From a virus (lineage: Duplodnaviria; Heunggongvirae; Uroviricota; Caudoviricetes), in IMG/VR virus record IMGVR_UViG_2585427787_000010: a stretch of 10,693 bases of DNA. One strand, 5' to 3'. The first letter of the stretch is position 1, and each line of letters starts with the position of its first letter. Shown one piece after another: positions 1,419 through 10,693 of the stretch. Below the pieces are notes generated by a model. The model searched no databases. It had not been told where the DNA came from and saw only the letters and a list, made by a program, of their open reading frames with translations. Both the position numbers and the translations under genes were made by a program.

Positions 1419-3890
1419 TTAAAAATCAGCCTGATTCGGAATCAGTTTTTGCCAGATAGCTGAAACGTATTTTGCCTGGTAACGGGCGTCATCAAGTGCA
1501 TTATGGCGCTCACCTTCGAATGGAATAGCCGTTCTGGCATCGAAGTCTATGGCTTTCCCCAGCTCAACGATTGTGCGTACATCGCGATCGTTGTAGTAAC
1601 GCCACGGGCAGGGGATCCCCTGCCGTTCGTATGAACGGCGCAAAATCGTGTTGTCGAAGTTGGCTCCATTTCCCCAGACCTGAACAAAAAATTCACCGGA
1701 GTTTTCGTCGATAAATTCCCGCAATTGTAACAGTGCATCATCTAACGGGATTTCATCGGTCATAATGGCAGATTGCGCTTCGCGTGATTGCTTAAGCCAC
1801 CATTTAATGGTGTCCCGATCAATGACTCCGCCAGCAGTTTCCAGATCGATAGTCTTACTAAATTCCGGTCCCATATCTCCGGTTTGCGGATCGAAAAATA
1901 TTGCACCTATTGAGATAATCGGGGCATCAGGATTTTTTCCCATGGTTTCAAGGTCGATCATTAGATGGTCACACGTCCTACTGGCGGATGTGATTTCGTG
2001 ATGACCGTTCACCTTAATTGAGTGATCTGCCGTCTCGCCAGTTTCATTATCGCTATTGTGATGCTGATTGCCGCCAGTGTTCTTCTTGTTTGGATGTTCA
2101 GCGCCTTCCATTTCCTCCGGATCATCTTCCTGAACTTCAACCTGATACTCTTCATCGAATGTTTCCTGGTATGTTGCGTCGCCCATCACCGCGCCACAAT
2201 CAGGGCAGTTGCCGCCGCCGGTCTGACCGCAGGCGGTGCAGATCTTTTCCGGTTCCTGTTGCACTACTGGTTCAGGTTGTTTCGTTTCTGGCTCGTTTTG
2301 TTGCGTATTTGGGCTGTTTTGTTCCGCTTTCTGGTCGTTCTGTTCCGATTCTTGCTGGTTCTGGTTTACAGAATCGCGGGTTTCAATCCCCTTTACCCAT
2401 TTCGGATCATTCGGGTCGCTAATCCCTGCAACAAATTCTCCGCGAGAGGCAGCAAGCAACTTATCGGCGTCAGGCTGGCTGATATTGGCTGCCTGCATAA
2501 TTTTGTTTACTTCGTCAGCGGTAACTTTTACCGGCTCTGGTTGTGCGGTCGTGTCAGATGCACCAGTATTTTGTTGTGAACCTGAGTACGTGCCGTTTTT
2601 ACGTGCGAAGTATTCCTCTTTTGTGATTTCCGTAGCTCCCAAGGCTAGTGCTTTTTCCAGACCAGAAAGTTTGTTTGCGCGACCGTATTTTTCGCCATCC
2701 TTGTCGGTGAAGAGGAAGTAGAACGGCCCTTCACGCTCTACAGATGGTTCGACTTCCACTTTGCATTCGGTTTTTTCGTTGTCCGGAATTGCCGTTTCCA
2801 CTGCATCAGTTTCTGGTACTGGCGACGAGAGAGTATCAGTTGCGCTCTGATTTGTTCCTTCATCTTCAAACACGCCCTTTGTAGTCAGGTATTCAGTAAT
2901 GTATTTGTTCAGTGCCACAGGGTCTTTGTGAATGTCGATCGGACGTTCACGGACAAGGCCAAAAATAGTCTGGCGGTCGTAGCGAAGGGCATCAGGCTGT
3001 TTGCGCATTGATGCCGAGATACGCTTCCAGTCTTCGCGGTCGTTGTCGATAACTTCATTTTTTGCCCAGCGATGAATGCTGCCGTCAATGTTTCCGGCAT
3101 CCACATCACCAGGCCAGAGAGCGTAGGCCAGTTCGTCATCCAGTGTTTTCCATGTCTGCTTGTATTCGCGATGAGTGGCAGCAATGACCGGGCTGATTTT
3201 TCCTGTTGAACTTTCAGTGTTCTGTTGATTGGCTCTGGCGCGGGCGAGATCAACAACAGACGTGTATTTTCCGGTTCCCTTGCGTTCACCTTCGCGACGT
3301 TTTTTCCAGATGCGCATCTCTGCCTGAATTTCGGGCCATTTAGCTCCAGGCTTACATTTATGCTTAACCCACCCGATGGCATGCAACTTAAGTTCCGGAT
3401 ACATGGCGTTAACTTCTGGCATTTTCATCAACGCTTCAACGATATATCCGTCGAATGTTGCCATGTCTTCCTGCAACAGTTCCTGTGCACTAATCACCAT
3501 ATCAACGGTGATGTTTTCACATGTGTCGAACTTAACCATGACAGCGTTCTGTACTTCAGGGGCCAGCTTGTCAAAAGTGACGTTCATCGGATTTGATTCA
3601 GTCTCAACCGGGACAAAGGAAGCTGACTCCTCATCCCAGCGGTTTTCCCGCATATATTCAGCATCCCAGGAATCGAGGGCAGGGCGGGGTATACCGGGTT
3701 TATCCTCGCAGACAAGAAATTTATAAGCGCAGTCCTGAGCAGCCGGATATTGCTCCAGGAATTGCCAGGTAAATTTGGCACGGGCGCGGCGTTCGTCACC
3801 GGCTTCAATGGCAGTGGCTACAGCAACTGCACCTTCTTCCTTTATTGCCTGTTCGTCCGGAATGGCGGCGCAAATAAAGACTTTACTCAT
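1419..3890 (-). CDS. Large prophage exonuclease (823 aa): RecE (exonuclease VIII)-like N-terminal/central region, Q/E/P-rich linker with a Cys4 cluster, and C-terminal DnaQ-like DEDDh 3'-5' exonuclease domain
   Basis: Long uninterrupted ORF with ATG at 3890. C-terminal ~190 aa carry DEDDh motifs: Exo I MIDLETMG, Exo II GNGANFDNTIL, Exo III HNALDDARYQAKY. Central CTACGQTGGGNCPDCG has CxxC...CxxC spacing. Position beside xis/int matches a lambdoid recombination module. The RecE-like assignment of the N-terminal part is from memory and tentative. Confidence 0.8.
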   Translation of the reverse strand: MSKVFICAAIPDEQAIKEEGAVAVATAIEAGDERRARAKFTWQFLEQYPAAQDCAYKFLVCEDKPGIPRPALDSWDAEYMRENRWDEESASFVPVETESNPMNVTFDKLAPEVQNAVMVKFDTCENITVDMVISAQELLQEDMATFDGYIVEALMKMPEVNAMYPELKLHAIGWVKHKCKPGAKWPEIQAEMRIWKKRREGERKGTGKYTSVVDLARARANQQNTESSTGKISPVIAATHREYKQTWKTLDDELAYALWPGDVDAGNIDGSIHRWAKNEVIDNDREDWKRISASMRKQPDALRYDRQTIFGLVRERPIDIHKDPVALNKYITEYLTTKGVFEDEGTNQSATDTLSSPVPETDAVETAIPDNEKTECKVEVEPSVEREGPFYFLFTDKDGEKYGRANKLSGLEKALALGATEITKEEYFARKNGTYSGSQQNTGASDTTAQPEPVKVTADEVNKIMQAANISQPDADKLLAASRGEFVAGISDPNDPKWVKGIETRDSVNQNQQESEQNDQKAEQNSPNTQQNEPETKQPEPVVQQEPEKICTACGQTGGGNCPDCGAVMGDATYQETFDEEYQVEVQEDDPEEMEGAEHPNKKNTGGNQHHNSDNETGETADHSIKVNGHHEITSASRTCDHLMIDLETMGKNPDAPIISIGAIFFDPQTGDMGPEFSKTIDLETAGGVIDRDTIKWWLKQSREAQSAIMTDEIPLDDALLQLREFIDENSGEFFVQVWGNGANFDNTILRRSYERQGIPCPWRYYNDRDVRTIVELGKAIDFDARTAIPFEGERHNALDDARYQAKYVSAIWQKLIPNQADF

Positions 3891-4013
3891 TTTGTTTTAA
3901 CCTCATGACAGATTTAAGGATGAACAAATCCCTGCCATTGCTGGCATATAAGAATCAAATCTGATGTATTCATTAAGCTGAATGTCGTATTGTGGCAGTT
4001 ATTTTATTACTGC

Positions 4014-4235
4014 TCACCATGACTCTGCTTTTACAGGTAAACCATCACGACCAAGGAAGACTTTAATCATGGTTTCCTTAATACAGTGTTGTGTGGAAAA
4101 ATCACGAATATAGAGCCGTTGTTTTTTAATGTTGTTTACCGAAGCAATATATGTTCTTCCTTTATGAATAACATAATCACCGGGAGTCACGCACTGACGA
4201 GGAATCTCATCAGTTCCGAAGTGATGAGCAATCAT
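4014..4235 (-). CDS. Small protein (73 aa) at the dicB/kilR position downstream of DicF; possible KilR-type cell-division inhibitor (tentative)
   Basis: ORF begins MEIIM...; the second ATG (4235) has a good SD (GGAG, 6-nt spacer) and gives 73 aa, the size of Rac KilR. It lies immediately downstream of the DicF-like sRNA, where Qin has dicB and Rac has kilR. The sequence does not match my recollection of DicB. Function is inferred from position and size only. Confidence 0.5.
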
Positions 4236-4409
4236 AATTATCTCCATTTTTACAAATGAACTTTGTTGATGCGGTGCCTGGTGCCTCCAGGTGACGTTAA
4301 CCAGTTAACAATTAACGCCGGATACAGAGAACCCACCCATAACACTGTTTTTGGTTTTAACTGTTCCGCGTGCGCTCAGCCGCATTCACCGCATCACAAA
4401 ACTCACTTT

Positions 4410-4467
4410 AAAAAGGGCGGCAGACCAGTCACGGAGTAAAACTGATACCGCCAAACGTCACCAGAAA
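4410..4467 (-). ncRNA. dicF: DicF-like small regulatory RNA (prophage sRNA that targets ftsZ mRNA in E. coli)
   Basis: Minus-strand sequence UUUUCUGGUGACGUUUGGCGGUAUCAGUUUUACUCCGUGACUGGUCUGCCGCCCUUUUU matches E. coli DicF as I recall it, with about one difference. It ends in a GC-rich hairpin (GGCGG...CCGCC) followed by U5, an intrinsic terminator. It sits in an ORF-free region of the leftward operon. Confidence 0.75.
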
Positions 4468-4801
4468 ATTGATAACAGAGGGCGTTGCAGCGGGGTTGTC
4501 ACTTAAGCGTATGGTCAACCTGACAACCCGGTGTCCTCAAGGGGGAAGAAATACCCCCGCCATACTTACCGCCGCGCCATTTCGCGGAGTGCCACAACCG
4601 GAAGCGCACGGTCGACGAAAATTTAACGACAGGCTATCTATGAACCAGCTACCTCGCCGTGCGCTTTCGCGTTATGGTCTGACTTTTCAGGGAAATATCC
4701 TTTCAGTAAACTGTCAGTGCCGGATGCTCACCCGTGTCCGGCGCACGCACTCCACCTCACCCGTGGAGAACTCCTTAATCACCAACCCTCAGGAGGGTGA
4801 A

Positions 4802-5077
4802 ATGTCGACTGAAAATGATGAAATCATTAACTCCCTGATACGCCAGATTAATAATTTTGATAAAGCATTGCAGCATGCTGCGGCGCGTAGTGATATAACT
4901 CTTTTAGCAATTTCATTTCTTGCATCTGTAATGGATAAAAATGAAGTCGTACGACAGAGTCTTGTTGATTATATCGACTCGCTTCAACCAGGCACTTTCA
5001 ATCATGAGAGCTTCAATCATGAGAAAGAGCATGTTAAATCTGTAATTAATTCTCTTGTTTTGAATCAAAAGAATTAA
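4802..5077 (+). CDS. Hypothetical small protein (91 aa), antisense-oriented moron inside the leftward early operon
   Basis: Strong SD AGGAGGGTGAA immediately before the ATG at 4802; AT-rich coding sequence; predicted intrinsic terminator about 25 nt after the stop. The upstream in-frame extension (4469-4801) is GC-rich and Arg/Pro-rich and looks non-coding. The protein is helical with an FNHESFNHE repeat and no recognisable family. Confidence 0.6.
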   Translation: MSTENDEIINSLIRQINNFDKALQHAAARSDITLLAISFLASVMDKNEVVRQSLVDYIDSLQPGTFNHESFNHEKEHVKSVINSLVLNQKN

Positions 5078-5375
5078 TGCTTTTTGTTGCAAGGTGATTT
5101 TCAAGGGGTTCTATTCGAATCCCTTTCTTTTTCATTAACAAGCCAAACCCCTTATCAATGATGTCCATTAGATCCAGGAAGTATTTTTCATGTAAATCCA
5201 GGTTATCAGAGAGCTGCTTCTCTTCGTACAGACCGATAAAGGCACGACGCACGTTACCGGATATAGTATCGATGGTTTCTTTTTCTACGGTACTCAGGTC
5301 AAGAGTCGCCAGTTGGGAACGAACTATATTCGCTGCCATTTCCTGGAATTGCATTGGTAAATCTTTAAATTCCAT
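5046..5375 (-). CDS. Hypothetical acidic helical protein (109 aa); 3' end overlaps the convergent 4802-5077 gene by 32 bp
   Basis: ATG at 5375 with GAGG about 7 nt upstream; AT-rich composition matching the neighbouring plus-strand gene; occupies the position of the small ydfB/ydfC or ydaG-type early genes. The ORF runs through the plus-strand terminator hairpin, so the true 3' end is uncertain. Confidence 0.5.
   Translation of the reverse strand: MEFKDLPMQFQEMAANIVRSQLATLDLSTVEKETIDTISGNVRRAFIGLYEEKQLSDNLDLHEKYFLDLMDIIDKGFGLLMKKKGIRIEPLENHLATKSINSFDSKQEN
5103..5132 (+). terminator. Putative Rho-independent terminator for the 4802-5077 gene
   Basis: Imperfect stem (AAGGGGTTC / GAA(T)CCCTT) with a 5-nt loop, followed by CTTTTT on the plus strand. 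Confidence 0.45.
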
Positions 5376-5397
5376 TATTAGCCTCGTTGGTTAGCTA

Positions 5398-5616: not shown

Positions 5617-5812
5617 ACTGATTCCTCGCGGTGCTGTTTCCCCTTAACGCCGGGGTAGCGGAACAAAAACCTGCTGCATAGTTATTAAAGTTGAACCCTG
5701 CCGTCATGTTCTTACGCCTCGGGCTGGCTACTTAACCCCTGACCACTGCCTGGTAACTCGAAGTATTGCCCTGCATTCTGTGGGGCGGGGTGGGTTGGTA
5801 TGAAAAGAAGGA

Positions 5813-5849
5813 TACCCATAGGTATTTAAAAAGTAAATACCTATGGGTA
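5813..5849. promoter_or_regulatory. Perfect 16-bp inverted repeat with 5-bp spacer, containing two TACC-N4-GGTA dyads; candidate OL-type operator and/or terminator of the repressor transcript
   Basis: tacccataggtattta-aaaag-taaatacctatgggta is directly readable. It lies between the repressor stop (5892) and the leftward early genes, with T-rich flanks on both strands. The same TACC-N4-GGTA motif recurs in the repressor/cro divergent region. Confidence 0.55.
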
Positions 5850-5891
5850 AATTTTTGCGGTGTCTTAACTGGTGACTAGTTGTTTGGTGAG

Positions 5892-9000: not shown

Positions 9001-9323
9001 ATATCGACGCAACAATGACGATTGGTACGGCCCTCAATACGGGGCTGGCGCTTCTTGGTTGGTGCTACATCATGTTCTGCTCATGGCGGTGGCTGTCACT
9101 GATGTTACTGAAAGAATGGAATAAACGCTGTAAACAGACGCAGCGGCAGAAGGCAATGAATGCGTTTTTTGAGACCTTCGATATTGACAGTATAGAACCA
9201 GGAGAGCCAGCTCGCGTGATTAGCAGAGGTGACGTTGTAATTCTTGTATACCGGAGTGAAGAGAAAGCAGTAACCGGCTCATTTAAACCGTCTGGTCTGT
9301 TTCCTCCGGCTCTACAAAAATAA
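8997..9323 (+). CDS. Small membrane protein (108 aa) with one N-terminal transmembrane helix
   Basis: GTG start overlapping the upstream stop, after GGAGGAGG; hydrophobic stretch IGTALNTGLALLGWCYIMFCSW; a hairpin (tgtccat-N8-atggaca) lies just after the stop. Confidence 0.55.
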   Translation: MNIDATMTIGTALNTGLALLGWCYIMFCSWRWLSLMLLKEWNKRCKQTQRQKAMNAFFETFDIDSIEPGEPARVISRGDVVILVYRSEEKAVTGSFKPSGLFPPALQK

Positions 9324-10000
9324 TGTCCATCATTTTTAATGGACACTATCGTATGAAACACCGGACCTGGATCACTGAAGCTTTACGTCTTCACTTTGAA
9401 GAACATTTACCCCGGGTTGTGGCCGGGCGTCGCCTGGGTGTACCAAAATCAACAGTTTGTAGTATGTTCGTGCGCTTTCGGAGAGCTGGCCTTTCGTGGC
9501 CTTTGCCCGCAGGCATGTCGGAGCAGGAACTTGATGCCTGCCTTTACGGACAATTTTCCACGGTACCAGTCGTACGTCCTGAAAGCACCGTTATATCCGA
9601 AGCCCCCGTGGTAAAAAAACGTCCCCGGCGGCCCAACTTCCCTTATGAGTTTAAAATCGCCTTAGTGGAGCAGTCACTGCAGCCCGGAGCCTGTGTGGCG
9701 CAGATCGCCCGGGAAAACGGAATCAACGATAACCTGCTCTTCAACTGGCGCCATCAATACCGGAAAGGTGGCCTGCTGCCTTCCGGAAAAAATATGCCGG
9801 CACTGCTTCCCGTGACGTTAACGCCGGAGCCGGATAATAAAATCCCGGCCCCCGCACAGGAACCAGAGCAGATAAATACACCGTCCGACAGTCTGTGTTG
9901 TGAGCTGGTTCTGCCGGCCGGAACTCTCAGGCTTAAAGGTAAACTGACGCCGGCGTTATTACAGACACTTATCCGCGAAATAAAAGGGAGCAGCCACTGA
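9323..10000 (+). CDS. tnpA: IS66-family TnpA (orf1)-like protein; true start uncertain (the N-terminal ~90 codons may belong to a different, disrupted gene or be an extension)
   Basis: C-terminal two-thirds (..KKRPRRPNFPYEFKIALVEQSLQPGACVAQIARENGINDNLLFNWRHQYRKG..) has the HTH-transposase pattern typical of IS66 orf1. The N-terminal part (RLHF...GLSWPLP...) looks like a separate IS21-IstA-like HTH. A possible GTG start at 9608 has no clear SD. Confidence 0.6.
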   Translation: MSIIFNGHYRMKHRTWITEALRLHFEEHLPRVVAGRRLGVPKSTVCSMFVRFRRAGLSWPLPAGMSEQELDACLYGQFSTVPVVRPESTVISEAPVVKKRPRRPNFPYEFKIALVEQSLQPGACVAQIARENGINDNLLFNWRHQYRKGGLLPSGKNMPALLPVTLTPEPDNKIPAPAQEPEQINTPSDSLCCELVLPAGTLRLKGKLTPALLQTLIREIKGSSH

Positions 10001-10347
10001 TGATATCTCTCCCTGCAGGTTCGCGTATCTGGCTGGTTGCAGGTATCACCGATATGCGAAATGGCTTTAACGGCCTGGCATCAAAAGTTCAGAACGTCCT
10101 GAAGGATGACCCGTTCTCCGGACACCTGTTCATCTTCCGCGGACGCCGGGGTGACCAGATAAAAGTGTTGTGGGCTGACAGTGACGGACTGTGCCTCTTC
10201 ACCAAACGCCTGGAGCGGGGCCGCTTCGTCTGGCCAGCCACCCGTGACGGCAAGGTGCACCTTACTCCGGCTCAGTTATCCATGCTTCTTGAAGGTATCA
10301 ACTGGAAGCACCCGAAACGAACGGAACGCGCTGGAATCCGCATATAA
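10000..10347 (+). CDS. tnpB: IS66-family accessory protein TnpB (orf2), 115 aa
   Basis: MISLPAGSRIWLVAGITDMRNGFNGLA...HLFIFRGRRGDQIKVLWADSDGLCLFTKRLE is characteristic of IS66 Orf2; its start overlaps the TnpA stop (TGATG). Confidence 0.9.
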   Translation: MISLPAGSRIWLVAGITDMRNGFNGLASKVQNVLKDDPFSGHLFIFRGRRGDQIKVLWADSDGLCLFTKRLERGRFVWPATRDGKVHLTPAQLSMLLEGINWKHPKRTERAGIRI

Positions 10348-10366
10348 CCCGTTGTAAAGTGAGGAT

Positions 10367-10693
10367 ATGGACACCTCACTTGCTCATGAGAACGCCCGCC
10401 TGCGGGCACTGTTGCAGACGCAACAGGACACCATCCGCCAGATGGCTGAATACAACCGCCTGCTCTCACAGCGGGTGGCGGCTTATGCTTCCGAAATCAA
10501 CCGGCTGAAGGCGCTGGTTGCGAAACTGCAACGTATGCAGTTCGGTAAAAGCTCAGAAAAACTTCGTGCAAAAACCGAACGGCAGATACAGGAAGCACAG
10601 GAGCGAATCAGCGCACTTCAGGAAGAAATGGCGGAAACGCTGGGTGAGCAATATGACCCGGTACTGCCATCCGCCCTGCGCCAGTCTTCAGCC
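10367..10693 (+). CDS. tnpC: IS66-family transposase TnpC (orf3), N-terminal 109 codons only (truncated by the window edge)
   Basis: ATG at 10367 after GTGAGGA; MDTSLAHENARLRALLQTQQD...LKALVAKLQRMQFGKSSEKL is the leucine-zipper N-terminus typical of IS66 transposases; the ORF is open to the end of the window. Confidence 0.85.
   Translation, partial: MDTSLAHENARLRALLQTQQDTIRQMAEYNRLLSQRVAAYASEINRLKALVAKLQRMQFGKSSEKLRAKTERQIQEAQERISALQEEMAETLGEQYDPVLPSALRQSSA

Follow-up and report, generated by a model that had tools for sequence, protein, structure and literature searches.

The textbook example of a prophage that turns an sRNA and a small protein against one host target, FtsZ, is the pair DicF and DicB. 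The locus described herein raises the question of whether DicF can also be found with another protein partner. In a 10,693-nucleotide sequence from a virus of the class Caudoviricetes (IMG/VR record IMGVR_UViG_2585427787_000010; this whole stretch of DNA is hereafter referred to as the window), a region of about 550 bp that is rich in hairpins and poor in open reading frames had been noted from the letters alone, and the original prediction was that its minus strand encodes a DicF-like RNA with a terminator, followed by a 73-aa gene that is unlike dicB and might specify a different division inhibitor of the size of KilR. The present analysis suggests that the stretch is probably the non-coding core of a dicBF-type early-left division-inhibition operon in which kil is the cargo. 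The coordinates of its features are collected in Table 1.

Table 1. Features of the DicF-kil locus, with window positions, strand and the basis of each assignment
Feature	Position	Strand	Basis or remark
Upstream remainder of the dicF module	4604..4787	-	K-12 homology; in K-12 directly after the ydfC stop codon
Long imperfect precursor stem (predicted)	4593..4676	-	Ensemble fold; K-12 190-nt product
5' leader of the 190-nt precursor, putatively removed by RNase E	4468..4603	-	K-12 homology; folds
DicF (5' end 4467)	4415..4467	-	RF00039 match and K-12 identity
DicF terminator hairpin (predicted)	4452-4419	-	Followed by the U-tract 4414-4410
Structured spacer (leader)	4257..4405	-	STnc100-like fold and compensatory changes
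Spacer closing helix, 19 bp	4405-4387 with 4276-4257	-	Consensus structure
Spacer hairpin	4383-4379 with 4373-4368	-	Consensus structure
Spacer 3-bp helix	4367-4365 with 4322-4320	-	Consensus structure
Spacer variable loop, indel-rich	4364-4323	-	
GTTAAC helix, 10 bp	4319-4310 with 4302-4293	-	
CCUGG hairpin	4291-4287 with 4281-4277	-	Consensus structure
Exchangeable cargo cassette (here kil)	3957..4255	-	Alignment to the prophage with ydfD and dicB
kil, 73 aa, predicted KilR-family FtsZ/cell-division inhibitor	4014..4235	-	NF008465, PHROG 294, K-12 KilR identity
Short terminator-like hairpin 3' of the cargo slot	3933..3946	-	Consensus scan; block common to the kil and dicB versions

The small RNA was identified using covariance and pairwise comparison. 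The Rfam DicF model RF00039 matched the minus strand at 4466..4415 over its entire length (model 1-52 of 52) with 74.2 bits and an E-value of 2.8e-15, well over the gathering score of 48 bits, and homology to the 53-nt K-12 RNA places the ends of the element at 4467..4415. The sequence is identical to E. coli K-12 DicF at 52 of 53 positions, and UUUUU lies directly 3' (4414..4410); 14 unpaired nucleotides at the 5' end precede a 3' stem-loop and a U-tract in the form of an intrinsic terminator. The segments used for target pairing are those of the K-12 RNA, with the 5' end directed to xylR and the 3' region to ftsZ and pykA. In K-12, DicF uses its 3' region to pair with the ftsZ ribosome-binding site (PMC5069750), and the sole difference from K-12, G in place of C at nt 43 (window position 4425), falls within this region; the predicted DicF-ftsZ duplex showed no loss (-39.4 versus -38.5 kcal/mol), in a calculation that placed real and shuffled sRNAs less than 2 sd apart. 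The minus-strand RNA with a terminator, as originally proposed, is by these sequence criteria a genuine copy of the known prophage sRNA DicF.

The homology extends well beyond the small RNA. Positions 4257-4787 are 96.8% identical over 531 nt to the ydfC-dicB intergenic region of the K-12 Qin prophage (positions 2563-3092 of the K-12 locus), indicating that the stretch is the canonical dicF module and not a new structured region. Judged by this alignment, it comprises the DicF precursor, DicF together with the DicF terminator, and a spacer leading up to the following gene; at its upstream edge, the module has a mosaic make-up that differs from locus to locus. In K-12, DicF is excised from the polycistronic dicBp transcript by RNase III, which yields a 190-nt species, and RNase E, which yields the 53-nt RNA seen in Northern blots, and some transcripts stop at the DicF terminator, while others run on as ydfABC-dicFB-ydfD read-through (PMC10448788). 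For this near-identical K-12 sequence, the published Northern blots thus contradict the outcome named at the outset as refuting, a long 5' UTR from which no small RNA is processed. The corresponding 190-nt precursor stretch in the window is identical to K-12 at 184 of 190 positions. When folded as a 575-nt minus-strand RNA, the region reached -220.2 kcal/mol, compared with -188.7 +/- 6.4 kcal/mol for shuffled sequences (z = -4.9), and none of the 100 shuffles folded as well. The long precursor stem holds, in the predicted fold, a perfect 10-bp helix (4666-4657 with 4611-4602), inside which RNase III would cut at about 4603, a position obtained by measuring the length of the 190-nt RNA backwards from the 3' end of DicF.

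The 5' leader of the precursor contains the GGGGG/CCCCC and CCGCG/CGCGG motifs together with a 9-bp hairpin (4529-4521 with 4501-4493). In an alignment of 103 non-redundant DicF modules, the precursor helices were pair-compatible in 94% of the cells; the arms of the long stem were conserved with a varying apical part (98-99% of cells paired), the 9-bp hairpin was 98% paired, and the CCGCG arms were 97% paired. The covariation score over these modules was 0.033, compared with 0.034 for shuffled alignments, the sequences being too alike for this score to be informative, and the precursor helices are described here as conserved and pair-compatible only. Four motifs had been singled out as additional structure at the outset, and all four are present within 1-2 nt of the positions given for them, yet not all of them behave as local hairpins. 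In the window ensemble fold, GGGGG (4541-4545) pairs with CCCCC (4554-4558) with a probability of 0.8, and CCTGG (4277-4281) and CCAGG (4287-4291) are found in the sequence as described; CCGCG (4572-4576) pairs with CGCGG (4583-4587) with a probability of only 0.03, and the clustered palindromes, read as GTTAAC at 4296-4301 and 4304-4309 and as ATTAAC at 4311-4316, do not fold on themselves, the two GTTAAC copies instead forming opposite arms of one 10-bp helix. The region is also as poor in open reading frames as had been claimed, as the listing contained no ORF of at least 60 aa wholly within it, and the one long frame that enters it, a 202-aa TTG-start ORF at 4469-5077 on the plus strand, is a mechanical extension of a 91-aa ORF beginning at 4802.

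The gene downstream is preceded by a GGAG Shine-Dalgarno sequence upstream of its ATG at 4235. Its 73-aa product matched the NCBIfam entry NF008465, "FtsZ inhibitor protein", over residues 1-73 of 73 with 140 bits (cutoff 92) and PHROG 294, "Kil protein for bacterial septation inhibition", with an E-value of about 8e-33 (7.9e-33); it is 81% identical to KilR of the K-12 Rac prophage, and the identical protein is named kil or Kil in RefSeq and phage records. A Pfam search of the protein returned no match for Kil, and BLASTP produced no alignment with the 62-aa K-12 DicB at E <= 100. By family membership, this protein would be a KilR-family FtsZ inhibitor, consistent with both the suspected absence of resemblance to DicB and the guess that DicF is paired here with another division inhibitor of KilR size. 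KilR of Rac acts on FtsZ and blocks division (PMC10798246). A dicB remnant between DicF and kil, annotated in RefSeq as "DicB, incomplete" at the equivalent of about 4262-4345, was also considered and rejected, as it equals the spacer before the dicB ATG; since the same non-coding spacer precedes the dicB start in the dicB locus, the annotation is an artefact.

The relationship between kil and dicB became apparent from a collinear prophage that shares its integrase, excisionase, 823-aa exonuclease and DicF module with the window, and in which ydfD and dicB occupy the slot of kil. The flanks of the two sequences are identical, and the interval from about 3957 to about 4255 is unrelated, so that kil is, as read from this alignment, a swapped cargo cassette in place of dicB-ydfD. 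The arrangement is infrequent. The DicF-kil junction was detected in 148 of 5,426 complete E. coli genomes (2.7%) using a junction-specific query tuned to keep dicB-type and Rac-type loci below 80% coverage, and many O121:H19 (STEC) strains carry it at 100% identity; 4,634 of these 5,426 genomes contained some part of the query, either the DicF module or kil. The DicF core was examined in 120 IMG/VR contigs. In about 103 of them, dicB, usually accompanied by ydfD, starts 175-188 nt past DicF; kil takes this place in two contigs, at +180, two others are arranged differently, and the remainder are too short to be typed. Of the viral DicF loci sampled that extend far enough downstream, about 90% carry dicB. 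The junction is also present in phage Evi (97.6% identity), and in Salmonella a DicF element (60.6 bits) is followed by a Kil homologue of 46% identity. Behind the DicF spacer, a toxin-antitoxin-like pair and a Rha/Ant-like regulator also occur as cargo. The Shigella Stx phage 75/02 was examined as a further DicF-kil locus, given its 82% DNA identity to the full length of a kil-spacer-DicF query, and was discarded as no DicF was detected at E <= 0.1. A scan of genome contigs for the DicF core pattern returned 72 matches, of which approximately 67 were chance hits in unrelated phyla; the real matches, of little diversity, came only from Escherichia, Shigella and Salmonella. No paper linking DicF with kil or KilR was found in the accessible literature. 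The DicF-kil arrangement is apparently an undescribed minority variant of a known division-blocking operon, all components of which are known and already annotated in public genomes.

The spacer between DicF and kil is itself structured. On the minus strand, 4262-4399 aligned to positions 26-154 of 206 of the Rfam model STnc100 (RF02076) with 37.7 bits and an E-value of 2.3e-6, below the gathering score of 47 bits, and related spacers scored from 28 to 44 bits. The closing stem, the GUUAAC-containing helix and the CCNGG hairpin of the model (CCNGG-GAGGCAC-CCNGG) all align to the spacer of the window. A consensus structure was derived using RNAalifold from 14 divergent spacer copies, including those of K-12 Qin, K-12 Rac, Rac-SA53, Stx phage 75/02, phage P7 and indel variants. 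Compensatory double changes were observed in 8 of 42 pairs, compared with 1.1 +/- 0.9 in shuffled alignments, none of 500 of which reached 8, and with 0-2 in slid registers; the structure was derived from the same alignment in which it was tested, and each compensatory event occurs in one sequence only. Two adjacent changes lie in the GTTAAC helix (Rac), and one lies in the CCUGG hairpin (P7). These changes support the spacer structure. The copies of the spacer are always located directly 5' of a gene, namely dicB, kil or, in phage P7, terB, and the spacer of the window has no terminator of its own and adjoins the kil Shine-Dalgarno sequence. The early-left position and the invariable location 5' of a gene suggest that the spacer is an STnc100-related leader and not a member of the family, and a leader that recurs before different accessory genes can reasonably be proposed as a cis-regulatory or processing element.

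The origin of the variant may be read from the Rac prophage. K-12 Rac matches window 4014-4420 at 83% identity, and upstream of its kilR lies the same spacer with a degenerate DicF-like element (39.1 bits, threshold 48) that has kept the terminator hairpin and diverged in the 5' region and loop; Rac-SA53 carries a similar element (41.1 bits). The window is of the Qin type through DicF and most of the spacer, and of the Rac type from about 4256. This switch is the pattern expected from recombination within the shared spacer, and the variant most likely arose by recombination in the leader common to Qin-type (dicB) and Rac-type (kilR) prophages.

A locus assembled in this manner could also be an accidental mosaic, in which DicF and kil became adjacent by module shuffling in a decaying prophage and have no functional coupling. 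The IS66-family element in the prophage, the loss of ydfA and ydfB and the lack of a clear promoter in our scans would all fit such a history, as would the low frequency of the junction, both in complete genomes and among viral DicF loci (2 of 120), and the presence of unrelated cargo behind the same spacer elsewhere. However, all functional elements are intact, from full-length DicF and its processing stem through the helices of the leader to the Shine-Dalgarno sequence and ORF of kil, and the junction is maintained without a single difference in many O121:H19 and other genomes. Moreover, Kil homologues have a DicF-type element in front of them in K-12 Rac (in degenerate form), Rac-SA53 and Salmonella, arguing for an old and repeated association, and we regard a purely accidental adjacency as unlikely. 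The spacer alone invites another explanation, in which 4257-4405 is a free-standing sRNA of the STnc100/PasD type with its own targets and not a cis leader of kil. STnc100 and PasD are Hfq-associated prophage sRNAs (bioRxiv 10.64898/2026.05.13.724894), the match includes the same helices, and the 19-bp closing helix resembles an RNase III substrate that might be able to release the element. Against this explanation, the scores of the window and its relatives all remain under the gathering threshold, true STnc100/PasD genes belong to the late region, close to Q, lpxR and the genes for lysis, and the spacer, without its own terminator, is joined to the kil Shine-Dalgarno sequence and invariably precedes a gene. 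Thus, an independent sRNA at this position seems improbable to us, and the leader interpretation is retained.

A third explanation places the function of the stretch on the plus strand, with either a RefSeq 145-aa hypothetical protein or the 202-aa TTG-start ORF as the product and the hairpins as incidental. Such a view could draw on the presence of the 202-aa frame in the ORF list and on a 438-nt hypothetical CDS, equivalent to about 4640-5077, annotated by RefSeq in related genomes. However, the sequence from 4257 to 4787 is homologous to a K-12 region without such a gene, and this homology stops at approximately 4787, shortly ahead of position 4802, where a strong start (AGGAGG-N5-ATG) is found. 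In addition, the G/C run at 4541-4558 commonly differs by one base in length between close relatives, which would break the 202-aa frame, the 91-aa core ORF that begins at 4802 has no match in Pfam, NCBIfam or PHROG, and the fold z-score and the DicF model account better for the sequence. Coding on the plus strand is therefore considered very improbable, and the reading of the minus strand as the non-coding core of a dicBF-type operon with kil as cargo is preferred.

Based on K-12 experiments with near-identical sequence, from which processing, ftsZ pairing and read-through are taken, the following course of events might be envisaged for this operon. A leftward transcript, controlled by the prophage repressor and initiated upstream of the ydfC-like gene, would cross the module and be cut by RNase III in the long stem near 4603, and the resulting species of about 190 nt would be trimmed by RNase E to the 53-nt DicF, with the hairpin and U-tract at 4452-4410 serving as the intrinsic terminator. 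DicF, together with Hfq, would pair with the ftsZ ribosome-binding site and block FtsZ synthesis, and might also pair with other mRNAs, such as xylR and pykA. The DicF terminator would limit transcription downstream, and transcripts that read through it would continue via the STnc100-like leader of about 150 nt into the cargo gene, here kil and not dicB-ydfD, whose KilR-family product is expected to inhibit FtsZ function. In other words, cell division would be hit twice, by DicF at the RNA level and by Kil at the protein level, as in the classic dicBF.

DicF, the module and kil all lie on one strand, and a consensus scan of this strand found no promoter-like site between DicF and kil or within the module, so that kil would presumably be co-transcribed with DicF in the strain that carries the window. 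A sigma-70 consensus scan from the repressor gene to the ydfC-like gene gave nothing convincing as the operon promoter. The IS66-family element begins at 9323, suggesting that the prophage may be cryptic or silent. Furthermore, kil may rarely be made, given the terminator between the promoter and kil and the finding that kilR of Rac is silenced by NusG/Rho-dependent termination (PMC10798246).

Compared with known systems, the locus is closest in its non-coding part to dicBF of K-12 Qin, with which it shares the module, the RNase III stem, the terminator, the spacer, a ydfC-like gene upstream and the early-left arm position next to a CI/Cro-type immunity region. Qin has the gene order ydfA-ydfB-ydfC-dicF-dicB-ydfD, whereas the window retains only ydfC and dicF, with kil replacing dicB-ydfD, has an additional two-ORF insert (4788-5397) between ydfC and the module and carries an immunity region of the YdaS/YdaT (Rac-like) type instead of DicA/DicC. 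The K-12 Rac kilR locus resembles the window in its homologous Kil, in the spacer directly upstream and in the position upstream of an exonuclease/recombination gene; unlike the window, with its full Qin-type DicF, Rac has only the degenerate element, and sieB occupies the opposite strand where the window has the DicF precursor. STnc100 and PasD share the helices described above and differ in context, as STnc100 typically lies in the late region of lambdoid or Fels-1-type prophages near Q and lysis genes, whereas the spacer is placed in the early-left arm, with DicF on one side and kil on the other, as the 5' leader of a protein gene. Kil of the phage lambda pL operon is described as a 47-aa ZipA-dependent FtsZ inhibitor (PMC3961180). 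Similar to the Kil considered here, it is a small division inhibitor directed at FtsZ, and its gene belongs to the early-left operon of a lambdoid phage. To our knowledge, lambda Kil and KilR have no sequence relationship, and we know of no DicF-type sRNA associated with the former.

The overall picture of these operons is unchanged, as the parts are all known. Herein, we tentatively put forward a broader view, which we hold to be possible and still rather doubtful, in which the DicF terminator would act together with the STnc100-like leader as one portable regulatory unit that gates interchangeable cargo toxic to the host or modifying it. Such cargo might comprise dicB-ydfD, kil, the toxin-antitoxin pair and, in P1-like phages, terB; gating might depend, with the same reservation, on read-through of the terminator and on processing of the 19-bp closing helix by RNase III, and the conserved leader might conceivably double as the recombination site for cargo exchange. 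If this were true, the degenerate terminator and leader of Rac would be part of the long-known silencing of kilR. For the biology of kilR, it is of interest in any case that K-12 Rac, with a gene known to be controlled by termination, retains the leader and a decayed DicF-like terminator. The locus shows the protein half of dicBF to be exchangeable, with Kil teamed with DicF in about 3% of complete E. coli genomes, and in pathogens with multiple copies of dicF, loci counted as "dicBF" may not carry dicB. For annotation, the false DicB pseudogene of RefSeq lies over the spacer.

In the K-12 Rac prophage, a degenerate DicF-like element was observed directly 5' of kilR, with a score of 39.1 bits that lies below the threshold of 48 for the Rfam DicF model (RF00039). 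The 5' region of this element has diverged, and its terminator hairpin and U-tract are kept whole. Immediately after it comes the structured spacer, as in the window. To our knowledge, no annotation exists for this element upstream of kilR, and it may have a bearing on the known termination-based silencing of kilR.

The core of the spacer between DicF and the cargo gene (window about 4270-4393) was found again in P1-like phages at about 80% identity; in phage P7, terB is the gene that immediately follows it, and any DicF or kil is far away. A RefSeq/PGAP pseudogene has been called within the same spacer, at equivalent positions in two further loci (L001 and L200). This call was rejected as an annotation artefact because the sequence is non-coding spacer that is also found 5' of the real dicB start codon. 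In the Salmonella enterica chromosome CP191473.1, a small ORF occupies the place of the STnc100-like spacer after DicF, and a KilR homologue (46% identity) comes next.

Coordinates of the features in the window and in related loci
Feature	Location	Strand	Remarks
Two-ORF insert	window 4788-5397		between ydfC-like gene and DicF module
91-aa ORF	window 4802-5077	plus	strong AGGAGG-N5-ATG start
109-aa ORF	window 5046-5375	minus	PHROG 6937, function unknown; convergent with and overlapping the 91-aa ORF
Inverted repeat	window 5813-5849		perfect, 16 bp, 5-nt loop; TACCCATAGGTATTTA-N5-TAAATACCTATGGGTA; T-rich flanking runs on both strands
Degenerate DicF-like element	L005:2903-2958 (E. coli K-12 Rac)	minus	between sieB and kilR
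"Cell division inhibition protein DicB, incomplete"	window 4262-4345; L001:5363-5446; L200:7093-7176		RefSeq/PGAP pseudogene
Spacer core	L202:1501-1616 (phage P7)		also in phage D6 and Klebsiella phage Kp4865-4
Salmonella DicF locus	L031:3199-3695 (CP191473.1)		DicF at 60.6 bits, with diverged 5' end
823-aa "exonuclease"	window 1419-3890	minus	partial RecE/exodeoxyribonuclease VIII match; Rv2179c-like domain
IS66-family ORFs	window 9323-10693		TnpA-like 9323-10000; TnpB-like 10000-10347

Unlike the window, K-12 Qin lacks the two-ORF insert. No family match was obtained for the 91-aa ORF, and in phage Evi a plus-strand ORF begins at the same position but differs from it. At window 5617-5891, ydfA and ydfB are absent, and K-12 homology resumes at 5664-5380 with ydfC and 28 bp derived from the sequence immediately before ydfA. 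The consensus scan revealed no sigma-70 site that could convincingly serve as promoter of the early-left operon. The inverted repeat is located shortly after the 3' end of the repressor gene and resembles either a bidirectional terminator or a site of the operator type.

Two records assigned to non-enterobacterial phages contain stretches that match the E. coli prophage region of the window: MT713136.1 (Aeromonas phage AP1, 249906-250127) at 96% identity and PP818812.1 (Actinobacillus phage vB_Apl-pPE4, 5755-6004) at 89% identity. This identity suggests assembly contamination or mislabelled hosts.

In the 823-aa protein, the RecE/exodeoxyribonuclease VIII match covers residues 238-625 and falls far under the equivalog cutoff, and the C-terminus carries the Rv2179c-like 3'-5' exoribonuclease domain (E 1.6e-67). 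The IS66-family element interrupts the prophage on the right-hand side of the replication genes.
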